Shown here in pieces: positions 15,267-42,451 of a stretch of 64,000 nt of DNA. Origin of the DNA: Ostreococcus lucimarinus. Its lineage: Eukaryota. The notes under the pieces are model-generated. The model saw only the letters and a list, made by a program, of their open reading frames with translations. It ran no database searches and had not been told where the DNA came from. The position numbers and the translations under genes are program-made. The stretch lies in the NCBI GenBank assembly GCA_000092065.1, contig CP000582.1; one strand, 5' to 3'. Within the stretch, counting starts at the first letter, position 1. Each line of letters starts with the position of its first letter.

Positions 15267-18200
15267 TCACGGTGAGCCCGAGCCCCCGGACGTTCGCTTG
15301 CGCGCCTCGCGCGCTCTCTTGATGGCCTCCTCTAGAGCGCTCATGTCCGTGACGGACGTCGAGCGGTTCACCGCGCCCACGCGTCGCATGGGCACGCCGC
15401 CGTCTTCCTCGGAGATAAGATCCGATCTCGACGGCGATCGTCCGAATGCATTGCGCGAGAATGGGATGTCGCGAATGTCGCGTTCACCCTCGGCGTTCGT
15501 TCGATACGACGGGCCCGACAAGTTGCTGACGCTACTCGATCGCGGTAGGCCCACCGAGCTCGATCGCTGTAAGTTCGAACCAGCTTTTGCACTGTTCGGC
15601 TCGGACGCGCCGTTGGCTTGCGGTCGCTGAGTGAACATATCGAAGAATTGCTGCCCGTAGGAGTCTCGTCGTCGCAATGAATTTTGCGTGTGGTATCGAG
15701 GCGAGTCCGGAATCGTCGAGCTTGGTCGCTCATCGAGCACTTGATCGTAAATTTCAATTGGGCTCTGCGCTTTCCAAGCCGGAAGCTCACCCTTGGTGGT
15801 CGACGCCGGCGCCGACGACGATAAACTCGATGCATCGGACATCCGACCCGTTCGTAACGGCGACAAGTAGGACGAAGGGTTCACCGGCGCGCGCGAATTC
15901 GCCGTCTCTGAAACCGCATCCATCGCAGCTTGCAACGCGCTCTTTCCTCGAGGGGGCGTCATCGGTGCCGTAGGCGTCGATGGACGCGAAGGCACGCCTT
16001 CACCGTCTCGGGTCTCTACCTTTGGTGACGGGGGCTGCGGCTGTTTCGCCGGCTCAGCAGAACTCGTTGCAGGCTCGTTCGATGTGAACGCGAACGGACT
16101 CTCCTTGCTCAGCGCCGCGACGGAAGCGGCATCTAAGCGATCGCTCGAAAACGAGACTGTGTTGTCCTTGCGCGCCGTCGGAATAACGACGGATGACTCC
16201 GAAATCGGCGGCGCCGCCGCCGCCTTGAGCGCAGCCGCAGAAGGCGCGGGCGTGACGAAAGCGGCCGGCGGCGGCGGTGGTGGCGTCGGCGGTTCAGACG
16301 TCTTCAACGTCTGTGGCAACGTCTTCGCCGACATCGCCTCCTTCGACGGCGTTGAGCCTTCTGGAATGAACGGCATCTTCACCCCGTTTACGAAGCCCGT
16401 CATTCCGATCACCTTTTCGCTCGTCTGCTCGAGGTCTCGCGAGTTGCTATTCATCAGCGCGCGCACGGGCAAATCGTACGGTCTGTTGCCAAACGGCTGC
16501 TCGATTTGCTCAGCCGCAGCCTCAATCCCGAACAGGGCGAGAGAAAGAATGGTGGTGACGGGGACGACGCCCCATACTCCGACTTCATGCACTAAAATCA
16601 TCGGTAACGAGCACACGTACACCATGAGCGTAGACTTCAAGTGGGTGATGATGCAACCCGGAGGCGGTTGGTTGACGACTTTTTCGCAACTCCCGTAGTT
16701 ATCCATGATCATCGCCACCTCGCTGTGGATCGTGCTCGCGATGGCGGGAGGGACGTAACCTTTGTTGAATGCTTCTTGGACGCAGCCGCGAATCTTTTCG
16801 AGGCAGTACAACACCTTATTCTCGGCGAGAAATAATCCTTCCAAGTCTCCCGCGTCAAGCGGTGTGGTGAGCTGACTCAAAATCGCTCCGTCGTTCAGCA
16901 CTGTACCATTCAATCGATCAGCCACGGTTTCTTTCAAAGCACCAATCAGACCCAGCGTTCGCGCGGCGAGTATCGGGTCGTCCGGCGCGACCCACGTGCA
17001 GAACGTGCCGCCAAGATTTTTGCAGTAAAACAAAATGTTTCCGAGACACGTGCGGCCGTACCACCAGCGCTCGTGCGCGTTGTTCCATCTAAAGACTAAC
17101 ATGAAACCCATGGGGAGGCCCAGGACGCCGTGCATGAAGGGTGAGAGCTTGAACATGTTCGCACCGAGACGAACCTTGGCGAAAGCCACGGCACACGCGC
17201 ACGTTGTGCTCAACAACGTCGGCTGCACAGGACCGAGTTCACGATTGATCACCCAGCGAGGGTTACGACCGAACACAGAGCTAAACAATCCATTATCGCT
17301 AAACTCGAGAGGATTCTCGGGGTAAAGTAGCAGCGAAGCTAAGAATAAACCGGTACCCATGACGGAGAACAAAACGAGTCGCGTCGTCTTGCTCGGGTCG
17401 CGCGTGATCCAAATATTGAGCAACCTTTGCATGATGCGAACAATCTCGCGCTCGGTTTCTTCCCACGCGAGTTTGTACCAGGGATCGGGAAGCACGACCT
17501 CGTCGTCGTCATCTTCCTCTTCGTCCTCGTCGTCTCCGTCATTCTTATCGTCTCCTCCTCCTCCTCCCCCGCCGCCGCCGGACCGCGCGTCGTCGCCATC
17601 ATCGCCACCGCCCACGCCCGCTAACACGGGATCAGCACCAGATTCTGCGGCCATTCCCGCCGCGGACCTTATCGCGCCTCCGCTCACCACCGGCGCGCTC
17701 TTCGGCGTCGCCAGCTTCTTCTCCCCCGTCTCCTTCTCTCCGTCAGTTTTCGGTTTCGTCTTCGTCGTCGCGCCTCCCTTCGTCGCGCTTCCGCTCGGTC
17801 CTTTCCCATCACCGTCTGCGGCGTCCCCCCCTTCCTTATCTCCACCGTCTTCTTTGTACTCTTTCCCTCTCGGTTCCCGCTTCGACGGCGGCAACAGTTC
17901 TTCCTCGCTCAACACCGGCCGCGTCGTCGACTCCGCGCGCGCGGGCGTCGATTTCGTCGGCTCATCCCGCGCCACCGCCGGCGTCTGCGCCACCGGTCCC
18001 GTGCCCACGATCGCCGTCGTGTTCGCGCGCCGCTTTTCGATGGCGTACGAGTCGTTCGGCTTGGAGGCGCCGCTGACGACGCCGGCGCCGTCGTCGCCGT
18101 CGCACGGCTCCACCATCGCGTCGCTCGCGCGCGGCGCCGGCGCCGCGTCGTCGACGGCATCGGAACGAATCGCCTCGCTCGACGATCGCGCGTCGTCGTC

Positions 18201-18389
18201 GTCGCTCGAGAGCGCGCGCGGCGGCGTGATTTGCACACCTCGTGGAATCGCGACACGGCGAACGAAAACGCGCGCGCGCGGGCTCGCGTGACGCGCGATG
18301 CGAGCGGCGCGCGGTGGAACGCGCCGTGGAACGCGCGCCGAAGCGCTCGACGCGCTCGACGCGCGAACGGTAGGCGCGAGGCGCAGCAT
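15267..18389 (-). CDS. Bestrophin / UPF0187-like anion-channel domain protein with long disordered N- and C-terminal tails
   Basis: Central domain LLNIWITRD...GFMLVFRWNNAHERWWYGRTCLGNI matches the L.FR.N.AY.RWWEGR signature. N-terminal poly-Gly/Asp/Glu tract and a C-terminal ~400 aa Ser/Pro/Ala-rich tail. Start chosen at the ATG at 18389 (MLRLAPTVRASSASSA); the ORF track extends to 18638. Confidence 0.55.
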   Translation of the reverse strand: MLRLAPTVRASSASSASARVPRRVPPRAARIARHASPRARVFVRRVAIPRGVQITPPRALSSDDDDARSSSEAIRSDAVDDAAPAPRASDAMVEPCDGDDGAGVVSGASKPNDSYAIEKRRANTTAIVGTGPVAQTPAVARDEPTKSTPARAESTTRPVLSEEELLPPSKREPRGKEYKEDGGDKEGGDAADGDGKGPSGSATKGGATTKTKPKTDGEKETGEKKLATPKSAPVVSGGAIRSAAGMAAESGADPVLAGVGGGDDGDDARSGGGGGGGGGDDKNDGDDEDEEEDDDDEVVLPDPWYKLAWEETEREIVRIMQRLLNIWITRDPSKTTRLVLFSVMGTGLFLASLLLYPENPLEFSDNGLFSSVFGRNPRWVINRELGPVQPTLLSTTCACAVAFAKVRLGANMFKLSPFMHGVLGLPMGFMLVFRWNNAHERWWYGRTCLGNILFYCKNLGGTFCTWVAPDDPILAARTLGLIGALKETVADRLNGTVLNDGAILSQLTTPLDAGDLEGLFLAENKVLYCLEKIRGCVQEAFNKGYVPPAIASTIHSEVAMIMDNYGSCEKVVNQPPPGCIITHLKSTLMVYVCSLPMILVHEVGVWGVVPVTTILSLALFGIEAAAEQIEQPFGNRPYDLPVRALMNSNSRDLEQTSEKVIGMTGFVNGVKMPFIPEGSTPSKEAMSAKTLPQTLKTSEPPTPPPPPPAAFVTPAPSAAALKAAAAPPISESSVVIPTARKDNTVSFSSDRLDAASVAALSKESPFAFTSNEPATSSAEPAKQPQPPSPKVETRDGEGVPSRPSTPTAPMTPPRGKSALQAAMDAVSETANSRAPVNPSSYLSPLRTGRMSDASSLSSSAPASTTKGELPAWKAQSPIEIYDQVLDERPSSTIPDSPRYHTQNSLRRRDSYGQQFFDMFTQRPQANGASEPNSAKAGSNLQRSSSVGLPRSSSVSNLSGPSYRTNAEGERDIRDIPFSRNAFGRSPSRSDLISEEDGGVPMRRVGAVNRSTSVTDMSALEEAIKRAREARKRTSGGSGSP

Positions 18390-18544
18390 GATGCGCGCGA
18401 GTCGCGGTCTGGGGACGCGCGCGCGAGAGCGCGGCGGCGCGCTCGACGACGTTCGAGCGACGCGCGCGGTGAAGCGCGAGACGGGGTGTACAGATGGTGC
18501 GCGATGGTATTGAATCGAGAGCGACGCGCGCTGGAGCGGCGATG

Positions 18545-18632
18545 GGACGACGGATGGAATCGCGTCGCGCTCGCCGAGAACCGCTTCGGTTCGTCGGTTT
18601 GAGAACGCGTCGGTCATAATTTTCCGTCGTCC
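18545..18632 (-). promoter_or_regulatory. Candidate SECIS element (form 2) in the glutathione peroxidase 3' UTR
   Basis: Minus strand reads GGACGACGG-AAAATT-ATGA-C-CGACGCG-TT-CTC-AAA-[CCGA C GAACCG aag CGGTTC TCGG]-C-GAG-CGCGACG-CGAT-TCCAT-CCGTCGTCC. It has a 9-bp helix I, an AUGA...GA quartet, a ~10-bp helix II, unpaired AAA and an apical mini-hairpin. It lies about 40 nt after the stop. Confidence 0.55.
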
Positions 18633-18671
18633 TCTCATCGTCGTCGAAGCCGTCGTCGTCGTAAACTAAGG

Positions 18672-19391
18672 CTAAAGTTCATCTCGAATGTCTCGCGCGA
18701 TCGCCTGGGCGTCCATCTTCGGCGGATACCGACGAACCACGCGCCCGCGATCGTCTACTAAAAATTTCGCAAAATTCCACTCCGCCGGCGCGCCGCCCGC
18801 GGTGAGCTGCGCGAACATCGGATTGTGCGCCAAATCCAGCGCGGGTTCGAATAACACATCCATGACGTCCGCGAAATCGCGTTTGATTTCCTCATTCGTT
18901 CCTTGCTGATGTCCGAAGTCGTCGCTCGGAAATCCCAATATGCGCAACCCGTCGCCGAATTCTTCGCGAAGCGCGCGAAAGCCCTCGACGTTGGATTGCT
19001 TGTATCCTCAGTGCGATGCGACGTTGGTGACGAGCGTGAACGCGCCTCGCGAAGACTCGCGTTTGGCGACTGGAAATCCCAGGAGCGCTTCGTCGCGCAC
19101 GACGCCGCCGTCGATGTCGTGAAGCACGCCGCTCAACACCGCTTCAAAAACCCCCAGCGCGTCTCGCGCCGCCAGCGCGTCCGCGGAGACGAACGACGCG
19201 GTTTGCAGCGCGCGCGCGTGCGCGCGAGCGTCCGTGAACGGGCGCACGACGACGTGAAGGAAGAAACCACCCAGAACGGTGGTTAGAAGAATCAAAACGA
19301 GTGGGCCGTGACGCGCGCGATTCGCGCGCGCCGTTCCGGGATAGGCGGCGGCGAACGGCGCGGTGCCGCTTGATTCGACGTCCGGAGGCAT
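18672..19391 (-). CDS. GPX: Glutathione peroxidase selenoprotein (in-frame UGA = Sec at 19008-19010)
   Basis: Joining ORFs 19008..19391 and 18672..18947 through the TGA gives AFTLVTNVASH-U-GYKQSNVEGFRALREEFGDGLRILGFPSDDFGHQQGTNEEIK...WNFAKFLVDDRGRVVRRYPP. The TGA sits exactly at the catalytic Sec/Cys of the NVAS(U/C)G motif, and the frame is conserved on both sides. There is no GT-AG alternative. Confidence 0.8.
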
Positions 19392-19465
19392 GGCGACGCG
19401 CGACGCGCGAGAGCGCGGCGTCGCGATGTGGCGCGGTCTACTTATGGTACACTTGCGTTACACAG

Positions 19466-20791
19466 CTACAGGCTCCGACCCGCCTTTGCGGACGCGAGCT
19501 GACCTTCCCAGTTGTTTCTAAATTTCCTATAAATCGCGAGCGCGGCCAAGGCGTCTTCGGCGGGATCGTGAGCATCTCCACACTGAATGCTTAGCGCGCA
19601 AAAGTCACGCGCCAGATGCCGCAAGCGACGAGGCTTGCGGAAGTGCGGCGGACGCAACAGCGGCCGCCATTTCGCGGTATCTCGCGTGTCTTCCCGTGGA
19701 TGGTGGAGCTGTAAAGCCGAAAAGTCGTTCTCCAGGGCGTGGCCGACGACGATGCGACCTTTTATGAGTTCAGCAACGTCGCGCTTGACGTCGGCGAATT
19801 CGCGCGCGCTCGACCCTTCGACGTGACGAGGAAGGATGCCGGAGACGTGCGTGCGATAGTCCGTGACTGTTTTGTACGCGCGTGAATAACTCAAATACAC
19901 TGTGTTTCCGTATTCGTTGATCACGCAGACCTGCGCGAGCATGGATTCCACGCCTCCTTCGCCGACGCCGACCATCTCGCAATCGAGCGCCAACACGTCG
20001 GTGACGGAGCAATCGTCGCTGAATGGCCTCGGTCGTTCGAGTTTGGTGCGATTCTCTAACCGTTGCACGTTTTCGTAAACGTCCCTGTGCGACTTTTTCC
20101 GCGCCTCACTCACGCCCGTGCCATCCAAACATCCGTTTCCGAACGGGTCTTCGCGCGCCGTGTAAAATCGCGCGACTTCTGCGACGACTTCGCGTCTCCA
20201 AAGCGCCTTTAAAACGCGCGAAAAATTCTGAAAAAATCCAGCGCTCTCAAACGTTGCTCGCGGAATAAATCCCACCATCGACGCTTCTTCGCTCGCTCTC
20301 GAACCGACCAAAGCGAGCTGATCCGCGCGCGCGTTCGCCGTGTGCGCTCCGCCTTTATGCGCCGCCACCTTCGCGATCAAAGTCTTCTCCCGCCTCTTAC
20401 TCAGCACGAACGCCGTCAGCACCGTCACCGCGTTCACAGCGATTTCGTCCACGTCTCCCCTCGCTATTATCTCCACGCACTTGCACACGTATCGCGAATC
20501 CGACATCACCGCCAACTTTTCGTCTCTCGGATGTCGAACGAGCGCCGCGAAAACCGCGCACATCTCCACCGCGTTGATATCGCACGATTTCCTCGCGCAC
20601 GACCCCGCGAAATTCAAATGATGTCCAAACTTATACCACACGCCCACGCCGCTCGCCGCGCCGCTCGCGTCGACGCTTCCGTCGACGTAACACGCGTCGT
20701 CGCCCGCGCTCGCGCCCCGTCGACGCCCCACCCCTCCGCCTCCGCGCCCGCCGCTCGCGGACGCCCGCGCGTCGCACCGTCGAAACCGCAT
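19466..20791 (-). CDS. Fusion protein: RNase H-like domain plus DEDDh 3'-5' exonuclease (REX4/ISG20-like)
   Basis: N-terminal DDACYVDGSV...INAVEMCAVFAAL...VMSDSRYV...AAHKGGAHTANARADQLA (RNase H DEDD fold). C-terminal LALDCEMVGV...GHALENDFSAL...HDPAEDALAALAIY (DEDDh). Start trimmed to the ATG at 20791; the upstream part of ORF 19466..22006 is antisense to the exosome gene. Confidence 0.65.
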   Translation of the reverse strand: MRFRRCDARASASGGRGGGGVGRRRGASAGDDACYVDGSVDASGAASGVGVWYKFGHHLNFAGSCARKSCDINAVEMCAVFAALVRHPRDEKLAVMSDSRYVCKCVEIIARGDVDEIAVNAVTVLTAFVLSKRREKTLIAKVAAHKGGAHTANARADQLALVGSRASEEASMVGFIPRATFESAGFFQNFSRVLKALWRREVVAEVARFYTAREDPFGNGCLDGTGVSEARKKSHRDVYENVQRLENRTKLERPRPFSDDCSVTDVLALDCEMVGVGEGGVESMLAQVCVINEYGNTVYLSYSRAYKTVTDYRTHVSGILPRHVEGSSAREFADVKRDVAELIKGRIVVGHALENDFSALQLHHPREDTRDTAKWRPLLRPPHFRKPRRLRHLARDFCALSIQCGDAHDPAEDALAALAIYRKFRNNWEGQLASAKAGRSL

Positions 20792-40231: not shown

Positions 40232-42451
40232 ATGATTCTTCGCGTTTGCTCGAAGCGCGCGCGCGCGACTCCGATGAAAACATTCAAAGCGCTCGCGCGT
40301 CCCGGTCGCCATCCGCAGTCCTCGATGCCCCTGATGCGCACCGTCGACGCCAAACCCGCCGTTCTCGCGCGTTGGCGCCGCCCATCGCCTCGAACGTCGT
40401 CGCGCGCCGCGTCATCGCGCGATCCGAGCGACGCGCGACCTGCAATTTTGGGTTTCGGCAGCGCCGGCGTGGACTACATAGCCAAACTCGACGGCGCTTT
40501 CCCGACGCCTGACGCCAAAACGCGCGCGTCCGAGCTCGAAATCGTGGGCGGAGGGAACTGCGCGAACGCGCTCGTCGCCGCTTCGCGCCTTGGCGCGCGC
40601 ACGGCGCTGGTCTCGAAAGTGGGAACCGACGGGGTGGGGACGCAGATTTTGACAGAGCTGGGCGAACGCGAAGGCGTCGACGTGTCTCATGTCGTACGAC
40701 GCGGGAACAGGTCGCCTTTCACGTACATCATGGTCACATCGTCGTCAAACGGAGATGGAGAGTCCACGCGAACGTGCGTGCACACGCCTGGGGAGACGTT
40801 GGAGGTGGAAGAGTTGGGCGACGTCGCCGCGCTGCTGGAAGCGGTTCATCCGGATGTCGTCTTCTTCGATGGACGACTCACAGAGAGCGCTATCGCGCTC
40901 GCGCGCGTCGCGGAAACGCGTGGAATTAGGGTGCTCGTCGAGTGTGAACGATTGAGAGATGGACTAGACGAACTTGTGCGGCTTGCGGACGTCGTGGTGA
41001 CGTCGAAGAATTACCCGCTTGATAGATTTACGGAGACGAAGACGCTAGGAGACGCGATGACAGAAATGTTTGCGTGTTTGCCGAAGGCAAAAGTGATGGT
41101 GACGACGCTCGGCGCGCGAGGGGCGGTAGCTTTGGTACGAGATGGTGTCGAAACTCCGGAAGTGGGGGAAGGGACGGCGTTGGATGACGTCGTGTCGAGA
41201 TTGGAGAACGCGGCCCTCCGCGGCGATGACGAGACGCCCGGACCGAGCGTGGAGACGGAATCCTTGGTAATCCGAGACGCAAGCGGCGAACGACGTTTCA
41301 AGGCAAAAGTTGTGTTCACGCCGGCGAAACGTTTGACGGACAACCAAGTGGTCGACACCACCGGGGCAGGCGACGCGTTCATAGGCACGCTCGCAATGTC
41401 GGCGTGCTCGGAGGATTTCAACGTCGCCAGCGCGATGCGCCTTGGCGCATACGTTGCGGCGACGAAATGCGGTGGCATTGGAGCGCGAAGCGCATTGCCG
41501 CATCGCAAAGATATTCCAGAATCATTATTTGAAGAATATCCGCTCAAATCGGCGTCGTCGCGCCGAGCGGCAATTTTCTCACTCGTCCTCGCTGGCCTAT
41601 CCTCGCTCGCCGAACCCGCGACTGCGGCGGACGAAGTGGACACGAAGAAACTTACCGAACTCTTCAACCGAGCCATGCAAGCGACGACGTATGAAGAGAG
41701 TGAAGCGATCTGGACCAAGGCGATAGAGCTCTCGCCCGAGGGTTCGCGCGCGCGGAGTGCGGCGTTTTCGAACCGTGGCACGCTTCGACTGCAGTATCAG
41801 GAATGGCAGGGCGCGGTGGACGATCTCCAAGCAAGCGTAGACCTCGACGGGAATAATCCCGATCCGCTGTCGTTGAATAATCTCGGCAACGCCAAGGGCG
41901 CGCTCAATCAGTGGGACTCCGCGATGGCAGATTTTCTGGAAGCGTCGAGGACGGAGGACATGCGAGCCATCGCGCTGGCAAACTACGCGTTGGCGGCGTT
42001 TCAGACCGAGCGCGATGATTTGGCGATAACCACGGCTCGAAAGCTTTTGAGAAGAGATCCAGAATTTTTAGACATGCGCGCCGCTTTATCGGCGTTCCTT
42101 TGGAGTGAAGGTCGTTTCGACGACGCCGAGGCGGAGTGGACTTTTCTGTGTAAGAGTGGACGCGGTTTCGGCGCCAAGCGTTCAGCGGAAGAGAAACGCG
42201 ATGCCGGCGCCATCGCGTACGGCTTCGAGCTCTTCACGCAGTCTGCAAATCAAATCGTCGCCGAACTAGACGGTGGTGTCAAAGACGCCGGTTTAGACAC
42301 GCCGTGTCGGCTGTACAAGACGACCGACACGGTGGCCAACCGCTGGCCTCCGCGCGCCACCGCCGCGTTGGATGCCTTCTTACGCGTCCGAGGCGACGGC
42401 CAAGCACTCGATTACGACGGTCGCGTGAAGACGTTCAATTTTAGGCATTAA
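40232..42451 (+). CDS. pfkB-family carbohydrate kinase fused to a C-terminal TPR-repeat domain, with transit-peptide-like N-terminus
   Basis: GGGNCANALVAASRLG and DTTGAGDAFIGTLA (pfkB motifs). C-terminal ~300 aa of TPR-like repeats (SNRGTLRLQYQEWQGAVDDLQASVDLD...). Confidence 0.6.
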   Translation: MILRVCSKRARATPMKTFKALARPGRHPQSSMPLMRTVDAKPAVLARWRRPSPRTSSRAASSRDPSDARPAILGFGSAGVDYIAKLDGAFPTPDAKTRASELEIVGGGNCANALVAASRLGARTALVSKVGTDGVGTQILTELGEREGVDVSHVVRRGNRSPFTYIMVTSSSNGDGESTRTCVHTPGETLEVEELGDVAALLEAVHPDVVFFDGRLTESAIALARVAETRGIRVLVECERLRDGLDELVRLADVVVTSKNYPLDRFTETKTLGDAMTEMFACLPKAKVMVTTLGARGAVALVRDGVETPEVGEGTALDDVVSRLENAALRGDDETPGPSVETESLVIRDASGERRFKAKVVFTPAKRLTDNQVVDTTGAGDAFIGTLAMSACSEDFNVASAMRLGAYVAATKCGGIGARSALPHRKDIPESLFEEYPLKSASSRRAAIFSLVLAGLSSLAEPATAADEVDTKKLTELFNRAMQATTYEESEAIWTKAIELSPEGSRARSAAFSNRGTLRLQYQEWQGAVDDLQASVDLDGNNPDPLSLNNLGNAKGALNQWDSAMADFLEASRTEDMRAIALANYALAAFQTERDDLAITTARKLLRRDPEFLDMRAALSAFLWSEGRFDDAEAEWTFLCKSGRGFGAKRSAEEKRDAGAIAYGFELFTQSANQIVAELDGGVKDAGLDTPCRLYKTTDTVANRWPPRATAALDAFLRVRGDGQALDYDGRVKTFNFRH

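Follow-up and report, generated by a model that had tools for sequence, protein, structure and literature searches.

An in-frame UGA and an AUGA-type SECIS element in the GpxE glutathione peroxidase gene of Ostreococcus lucimarinus

We analyzed a stretch of 64,000 nucleotides from Ostreococcus lucimarinus (GenBank assembly GCA_000092065.1, contig CP000582.1), called the window here, in which a first-pass annotation made from the letters alone had proposed a glutathione peroxidase (GPx) gene with a selenocysteine (Sec) codon and, behind its stop codon, a selenocysteine insertion sequence (SECIS) hairpin. We are highly confident that positions 19391..18545 of the minus strand are the GpxE gene of O. 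lucimarinus or of a near-identical strain, an intronless gene for a 239-residue selenoprotein of the GPx family. The open frame, the position and conservation of its TGA, the purifying selection on the codons downstream, the fold and covariation of the SECIS element, and the identity with a published protein are established directly. Because the protein matches rows published for GpxE in 2007, the gene is the known O. lucimarinus selenoprotein GpxE and not a discovery. Positions below are on the minus strand of the window unless stated otherwise.

Reading frame, active site and published protein

Translation of 19391..18672 gave a single frame of 239 codons, in which the lone internal stop is the TGA at 19010..19008 and the terminal stop is TAG at 18674..18672. 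The open reading frames (ORFs) 19008..19391 and 18672..18947, which the first-pass annotation had read as same-frame halves around the TGA, are indeed parts of this one frame. That the second of them appears shorter reflects the ORF tool, which takes the first TTG as its start; right after the TGA the frame is already open. The residues FTLVTNVASH precede the TGA and GYKQSNVEGF follow it, with the upstream flank GAFTLVTNVASH-TGA-GYKQSNVEGF.

With the stop replaced by Cys for the Pfam search, the protein matched GSHPx (PF00255) with 44.1 bits against a cut-off of 27 (E 1.6e-11). A phmmer comparison with PDB returned chains of GPx4, GPx5, GPx7 and GPx8 with E values of 1e-18 to 1e-10 overall, those of GPx4 lying between 1e-15 and 1e-18 over residues 112-235, and the alignment to solved GPx4 suggests a thioredoxin-type GPx fold for this region. 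In the phmmer alignment the TGA occupies the Sec46/Cys column of the GPx4 structures (VTNVASqCG), which agrees with its proposed place at the catalytic residue of VASH-U-GYK. The Gln of FGxQ and the Trp and Asn of WNF aligned in register with GPx4 as well. The four tetrad columns (U128, Q162, W205 and N206) were invariant across the orthologs described below and bacterial homologs (alignment A4), and we take their counterparts in human GPx4 to be U46, Q81, W136 and N137. The closest bacterial homologs have Cys in the same motif, NVASHCGY. A word-indexed protein search with the full GpxE query found only bacterial Cys-GPx proteins of at most 41% identity and one chimeric contig; this search also missed identical ORF fragments present in the collection.

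Lobanov et al. (2007, Genome Biol 8:R198; PMC2375036) described 29 O. lucimarinus selenoproteins, five GPx among them. Barring machine-reading errors (the PDF text used for comparison was machine-read and has lost a few letters), the rows named 'O. lucimarinus GpxE' in their Additional file 2, which begin at residues 1, 44, 101 and 203, match the window protein. The row from residue 1 reads MPPDVESSGTAPFAAAYPGTARANRARHGPLVLILLTTVLGGF, that from residue 101 reads EALLGFPVAKRESSRG.FTLVTNVASHUGYKQSNVEGF..., and that from residue 203 reads AEWNFAKFLVDDRGRVVRRYPPKMDAQA.ARDIRDEL. The start Met, the numbering (E101, A203), the NVASHUGYK motif and the ...IARDIRDEL C-terminus are shared, with no substantive difference. 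Several other proteins encoded in the window fall into 90% clusters together with proteins of O. lucimarinus CCE9901. The same study reported that O. lucimarinus SECIS elements have G before the quartet in all but one case, a single ATGA-type element in a GPx gene (PMC2375036). As the GpxE element belongs to the ATGA type, of which the species has a single example, the GPx gene in question is very probably GpxE.

Conservation of the TGA and the SECIS element

Because the word-indexed protein search yielded no orthologs, we collected them with a degenerate DNA pattern for NVASH-TGA-GYK that excluded the O. lucimarinus Ala codon (7 metagenome loci) and through synteny with the neighboring bestrophin gene (5 more). 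The set holds a near-lucimarinus locus (L013), O. mediterraneus-like loci (L009-L012, L014, L015 and L019), loci of two oceanic lineages (L016/L017 and L018), and O. tauri (L020), whose bestrophin falls in the CEG01057.1 cluster and whose GpxE is the same as the published O. tauri GpxE row. TGA stood opposite TGA at the same codon in every ortholog pair; the six orthologous sequences that retain it represent four or more Ostreococcus lineages.

Synonymous differences between lineages were near saturation (proportion of synonymous differences, pS, 0.6-0.86). Over the 110-114 codons downstream of the TGA, the ratio of nonsynonymous to synonymous rates (dN/dS), given for pairs where dS was estimable, was 0.19 for O. 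lucimarinus and L013, 0.18 for L016 and L018, and 0.25 for L016 and O. tauri, in each case lower than upstream of the TGA. Given such low values in the face of nearly saturated synonymous sites, we conclude that the part downstream of the TGA is translated.

The minimum free energy (MFE) fold of 18640..18540, computed without constraint, was the hairpin that the first-pass annotation had described as a form-2 SECIS (-45.9 kcal/mol, z = -4.2, with 0 of 200 dinucleotide shuffles as good), and the 88-nt core alone gave z = -3.9. The element starts 39 nt past the stop codon, close to the 40 nt first estimated, and the distance from the UGA downstream to its core is 391 nt. The quartet consists of the non-Watson-Crick pairs U.U, G.A, A.G and C.C, and an internal loop separates helix I from the core (Table 1). 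The helix II given earlier as CGACGCG/CGCGACG is present; its strands are not fully complementary as first written, owing to an A.A mismatch, and with 10 positions it is three longer. A long mini-stem at the apex is characteristic of Ostreococcus SECIS elements (PMC2375036) and has also been described for Chlamydomonas.

We then scanned both strands of the window with a SECIS descriptor that required [AG]UGAN, at least 9 pairs among the 10 positions of helix II, AA within 3 nt, NGA, and no fewer than 7 bp in helix I. The single match was the GpxE element, and dinucleotide shuffles yielded 0.1 matches per window. A relaxed descriptor gave one extra match at 40737..40685 (GUGAC..., with a helix I of only 6 bp), which we judged to be chance because it lies antisense within a 739-aa ORF at 40232..42451 of the plus strand.

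Every ortholog yielded a hairpin of the same architecture 30-50 nt after the stop codon on unconstrained folding. In the comparison with related GPx selenoproteins that the first-pass annotation had recommended, the Ostreococcus orthologs all retain both the TGA and the SECIS. The kept elements are RUGAN (AUGAC, AUGAC, GUGAA and GUGAC), the ten-position helix II, one or two bases, AAA, and NGAU. The sequences of helix I and the mini-stem are entirely different between lineages, with the stem formed in each case. A MAFFT alignment of the whole SECIS left the cores out of register, and a trimmed alignment (A3) served helix II only; helix I and the mini-stem were assessed from individual folds because no common columns were possible. 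For helix II in A3, 91.8% of cells were paired, 5 of the 11 pairs had changed on both sides, and none of 500 shuffles reached the covariation score. Controls in which the partner was slid gave lower pairing than observed (18-71%), highest at +/-2.

The base before the quartet (18617) differs among the GpxE orthologs, being A in the lucimarinus and mediterraneus-like sequences (L010 and L019) and G in O. tauri and the oceanic sequences (L016, L018 and L020). The fourth pair of the quartet also varies, C.C vs A.G. A metagenome contig from ENA (L001:1-1042) proved to be a chimera in which the ORF of an ABC2-type membrane protein is joined at codon ~120 to the end of GpxE; its GpxE portion comprises the last 45 codons and the 3' untranslated region (UTR) including the SECIS, and is one base off the window. 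Since it is chimeric and from the same species, this sequence (L001/P0001) is uninformative for covariation.

Under the established scheme of eukaryotic Sec insertion, the type II SECIS in the 3' UTR of the GpxE mRNA would bind SBP2, which would recruit eEFSec with Sec-tRNA(Sec), and the ribosome would place Sec at the UGA of codon 128 with no termination. A tRNA scan of the window found no tRNA gene, and hence no tRNA-Sec within it. By the mechanism of the GPx family, Sec128 would form the catalytic tetrad with Gln162, Trp205 and Asn206; a hydroperoxide would oxidize the selenol to a selenenic acid, which thiols would re-reduce. The cysteine count of the GpxE protein is 0, so that no internal selenenylsulfide with a resolving Cys would form and an external thiol would be needed as reductant.

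Table 1. Features of the GpxE locus in the window
Feature	Position	Strand	Basis or remark
GpxE coding sequence	18672..19391	-	239 codons including Sec128; continuous frame with one TGA; published rows match
N-terminal hydrophobic segment, residues 31-49, LVLILLTTVLGGFFLHVVV	19245..19301	-	predicted membrane anchor or uncleaved signal
GPx catalytic domain with Gln162, Trp205, Asn206	18687..19058	-	residues 112-235; Pfam GSHPx; PDB GPx4/GPx5/GPx7/GPx8
UGA as Sec, residue 128, motif NVASH-U-GYK	19008..19010	-	GPx4 Sec46/Cys column; TGA kept in orthologs
C-terminal tetrapeptide RDEL	18675..18686	-	read from sequence; resembles an endoplasmic reticulum (ER)-retrieval signal, a putative function
SECIS element, type II, ATGA-type	18545..18632	-	MFE fold, z-scores, sole descriptor match, orthologs alike
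Helix I, 5' strand, GGACGACGGA	18623..18632	-	10 bp with 18545..18554 in MFE fold
Core, 5' side, AUGA+C (unpaired A, then UGAC 18616..18613)	18613..18617	-	read from sequence
Helix II, 5' strand, CGACGCGUUC	18603..18612	-	9 of 10 positions paired with 18563..18572, one A.A; covariation in A3
Unpaired AAA, in internal loop above helix II, after UC	18598..18600	-	invariant in all orthologs
Long apical mini-stem (helix III), 10 bp, one bulge	18574..18597	-	MFE fold; stem in every lineage
Helix II, 3' strand, GAGCGCGACG	18563..18572	-	MFE fold and covariation
Core, 3' side, CGAU, quartet partners, tandem G.A/A.G	18559..18562	-	read from sequence; NGAU in all orthologs
Helix I, 3' strand, UCCGUCGUCC	18545..18554	-	MFE fold
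UGUAC, one-base variant of UGUAA, possible GpxE 3'-end signal	18488..18492	-	read from sequence; candidate
Probable start codon of bestrophin-family gene	18387..18389	-	155 nt after SECIS; equivalent to annotated O. tauri start

Other explanations of the TGA and the hairpin

If the TGA were a genuine stop, the gene would encode a 127-residue membrane protein, and the GPx-like part downstream would be the untranslated remnant of a pseudogene or split gene. Prokaryotic gene callers do treat the locus in this way, breaking it up across hundreds of metagenome contigs into two ORFs, one of 127 aa and the other of 61-91 aa, and 1286 index blocks of marine metagenomes list the 127-residue N-terminal fragment. 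In addition, the product in O. lucimarinus is known from sequence alone: the protein-level data are those of O. tauri, for which a proteome study (PMC8834552) quantified 'Glutathione peroxidase E' (ostta02g02735) and 75Se labelling of selenoproteins is reported (PMC2375036). Nevertheless, we consider termination at this codon highly improbable. The 111 downstream codons are in frame in all lineages and under purifying selection (dN/dS 0.18-0.25) that is stronger than upstream; they contain the invariant Gln, Trp and Asn; a conserved SECIS follows each ortholog; and the stop falls exactly on the catalytic residue.

The Cys of the closest bacterial homologs, in NVASHCGY, would fit an assembly or sequencing error in which TGA replaced TGC or TGT in the gene for a Cys-GPx. 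No such Cys codon was found at 19010..19008. The window reads TGA there, and so do five independent assemblies of metagenome data from the same species, which are identical through the TGA and the SECIS and differ only in the 5' UTR; six further orthologous sequences of other lineages also have TGA. With U at position 128 of the published genome-based model as well, the probability of an error is close to nil. We give a similarly negligible chance to a GT-AG intron that excises the TGA and makes recoding unnecessary. The first-pass annotation held that no such intron can replace the TGA, a wording that goes too far, as 101 in-frame, stop-free GT..AG excisions span the codon by dinucleotide alone. 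In substance it holds: all of these excisions, the shortest of which measure 24-48 nt, remove VASH-U-GYK or more and with it the peroxidatic residue, and both flanks of the TGA align gap-free to GPx4 and are conserved as codons in the orthologs.

Instead of a SECIS, the hairpin might be a GC-rich stem-loop that arose by chance, or it might serve the neighboring genes as a terminator or regulatory element. Stable hairpins are common in a region of ~64% G+C, the element of L016 has a z-score of only -1.4, and the ATG of the next gene is 155 nt away. These points are outweighed by the retention of RUGAN...NGAU, the AAA spacing, the 10-position helix II and helix I in lineages whose helix I and mini-stem sequences have diverged, by the compensatory changes in helix II, and by a single descriptor match in 128 kb (both strands) vs 0.1 expected. 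Moreover, the hairpin always follows a UGA-containing GPx ORF. An origin other than as a SECIS is therefore very unlikely.

Besides the protein-level data being those of O. tauri, several results weigh against our assignment of GpxE and its SECIS. An Rfam scan of the region gave no SECIS family match (SECIS_1) even at E <= 10. At the same threshold, however, Rfam missed the SECIS at all four orthologous loci scanned, including the published O. tauri gene; since even that element was missed, the negative result says little, and the model appears insensitive to Ostreococcus-type elements. The descriptor was composed after the element had been seen, which limits the chance estimate. The covariation rests on only 8 sequences from ~5 lineages, and the slides of +/-2 still give 66-71% pairing owing to the CG repeat of helix II. 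Finally, which of the five GPx genes has the ATGA-type SECIS is not named in PMC2375036.

Predicted membrane anchor, neighboring genes and known relatives

The maximum 19-residue Kyte-Doolittle mean of GpxE was 2.55, at residues 31-49, and each of the five orthologous lineages has an equivalent segment in the corresponding position. The C-termini of the orthologs are RDEL, RDEL, KEEL and KDEL, and RDELRRR in O. tauri. An anchor near the N-terminus combined with a terminal RDEL suggests that GpxE is tethered to a membrane and possibly resides in the ER. The text of PMC2375036 does not discuss the anchor or the RDEL end of GpxE.

In O. tauri, the GpxE locus lies at L020:2026-2754 (plus strand), and the model published in 2007 begins at an internal Met (MVDVDARR...), without the hydrophobic segment. 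In frame upstream of this start we found MDVEHGV...NVVVAIVLLCSVFFFWRLTRPF. Because these residues align to the anchor and the RPF motif that the other lineages have at the N-terminus, the true start of O. tauri GpxE is probably ~66 codons further upstream.

Among animal proteins, GPx8 is held in the membrane by an N-terminal anchor, and GPx7 and GPx8 alike end in a KDEL-like signal. We tentatively raise the possibility that GpxE is a Sec-using counterpart of GPx7/GPx8, that is, a membrane-tethered peroxidase of the ER that draws its electrons from protein disulfide isomerases (PDIs). The features that point this way are the conserved anchor, the RDEL/KDEL-like end in most lineages and the lack of a resolving cysteine. 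If this is true, GpxE would be part of a largely Sec-based circuit for oxidative folding and H2O2 disposal, as three Ostreococcus PDIs are themselves selenoproteins.

GpxE is closely packed between its neighbors. Upstream, the gene for an RNase H / RNase T domain protein has its stop at 19466, which leaves 74 nt (19392..19465) before the GpxE ATG at 19391. Downstream, the probable ATG of a bestrophin-family gene, at 18389, follows the SECIS after 155 nt, near the ~150 bp of the first-pass annotation. The O. tauri bestrophin ortholog (1038 aa, CEG01057.1 cluster) has its start ATG 247 nt after the GpxE stop. For a compact genome, it is plausible that the promoter of the next gene lies inside the GpxE 3' UTR, as the first-pass annotation had inferred. 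That the SECIS-bearing 3' UTR overlaps the bestrophin transcription unit is less likely than GpxE being a GPx7/GPx8 counterpart. With only 74 nt between the RNase H/T stop and the GpxE ATG, promoters that overlap a neighbor may be the rule at this locus and not a peculiarity of the SECIS region.

The poly(A) signal reported for O. lucimarinus is UGUAA (PMC6413133). UGUAA occurs at the place equivalent to the UGUAC of Table 1 in an O. mediterraneus-like ortholog (L010), in L018 and in O. tauri (L020), and UGUAC or UGUAA lies ~15-55 nt after the SECIS. Given this candidate signal at 18492..18488, the 3' end of the GpxE mRNA would be expected near 18460-18480, and the transcript probably stops tens of nucleotides short of the next ATG. 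In O. tauri, the UGUAA motif is inside a 21-nt tandem duplication (ACATGTAAATGATACTG repeated).

Prokaryotic gene callers (L004-L008) start the bestrophin gene at the ATG of the SECIS AUGA (18617..15267, 1116 aa). The bestrophin frame is open back to 18638, and the annotated O. tauri ortholog points to the start at 18389. In the O. mediterraneus-like L019, the RNase H/T and RNase PH genes lie downstream of the bestrophin and NAD-binding genes, and in the other lineages (the window, L016 and L020) they lie upstream of GpxE; the adjacency of GpxE and bestrophin is retained in L019 despite the changed order.

The 127-residue fragment (19008..19391) is entered at NCBI as 'hypothetical protein N9S31_01010 [bacterium]' (MDA9599385.1), evidently from an Ostreococcus contig that was binned into a bacterial metagenome-assembled genome (MAG). 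JGI labels the same N-terminal fragment 'uncharacterized membrane protein YeiH'.

GpxE belongs to the large and well-described Ostreococcus selenoproteome, and the main value of this analysis is as a validation: a recoded UGA and its SECIS were recognized from raw sequence and then confirmed computationally. Small additions are the set of GpxE SECIS elements from ~5 Ostreococcus lineages, with their compensatory changes and the A/G variation before the quartet, and the conserved membrane anchor and KDEL-like end. The locus also carries a practical warning, since the Rfam SECIS model misses Ostreococcus elements, and GpxE appears split or under a wrong label in prokaryotic gene calls and bacterial MAG records.

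Among known systems other than the published O. lucimarinus protein, O. tauri GpxE (ostta02g02735) is a syntenic ortholog, flanked by the RNase H/T and bestrophin genes, and shares the NVASHUGYK motif, ~48% identity and a type II SECIS with a long mini-stem. The two differ in their SECIS, which is of the GUGA type in O. tauri and of the AUGA type in O. lucimarinus, and in the RDELRRR C-terminus of the O. tauri protein. Like the canonical type II SECIS, the GpxE element has a helix I, an internal loop, a quartet of A/G plus UGAN...NGAN, a helix II and an additional apical helix, with the unpaired AAR 12 nt after the AUGAN core. Unlike the canonical form, its mini-stem is unusually long (10 bp), and Rfam SECIS_1 fails to detect it.

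Mammalian GPx4 is the best match among solved structures (E ~1e-16). It has Sec at the same column and the Gln/Trp/Asn tetrad, and it is likewise a short, monomer-type GPx without tetramer loops. However, the identity of ~30-40% is confined to the domain; GpxE differs by its predicted N-terminal anchor, its RDEL end and its lack of cysteine, and it has FPSDDF where GPx4 has FPCNQF. Mammalian GPx7 and GPx8, the ER-resident PDI peroxidases, also match in sequence (2p31, 8.7e-12; 3kij, 4.2e-10), and GpxE has a predicted anchor, like GPx8, and an RDEL end that resembles the KDEL-like signal of both. In contrast to their Cys active site, GpxE has UGA/Sec. Because the UGA occupies the position of the peroxidatic Cys, the likeness of GpxE to GPx7/GPx8 is one of topology only and does not amount to membership.

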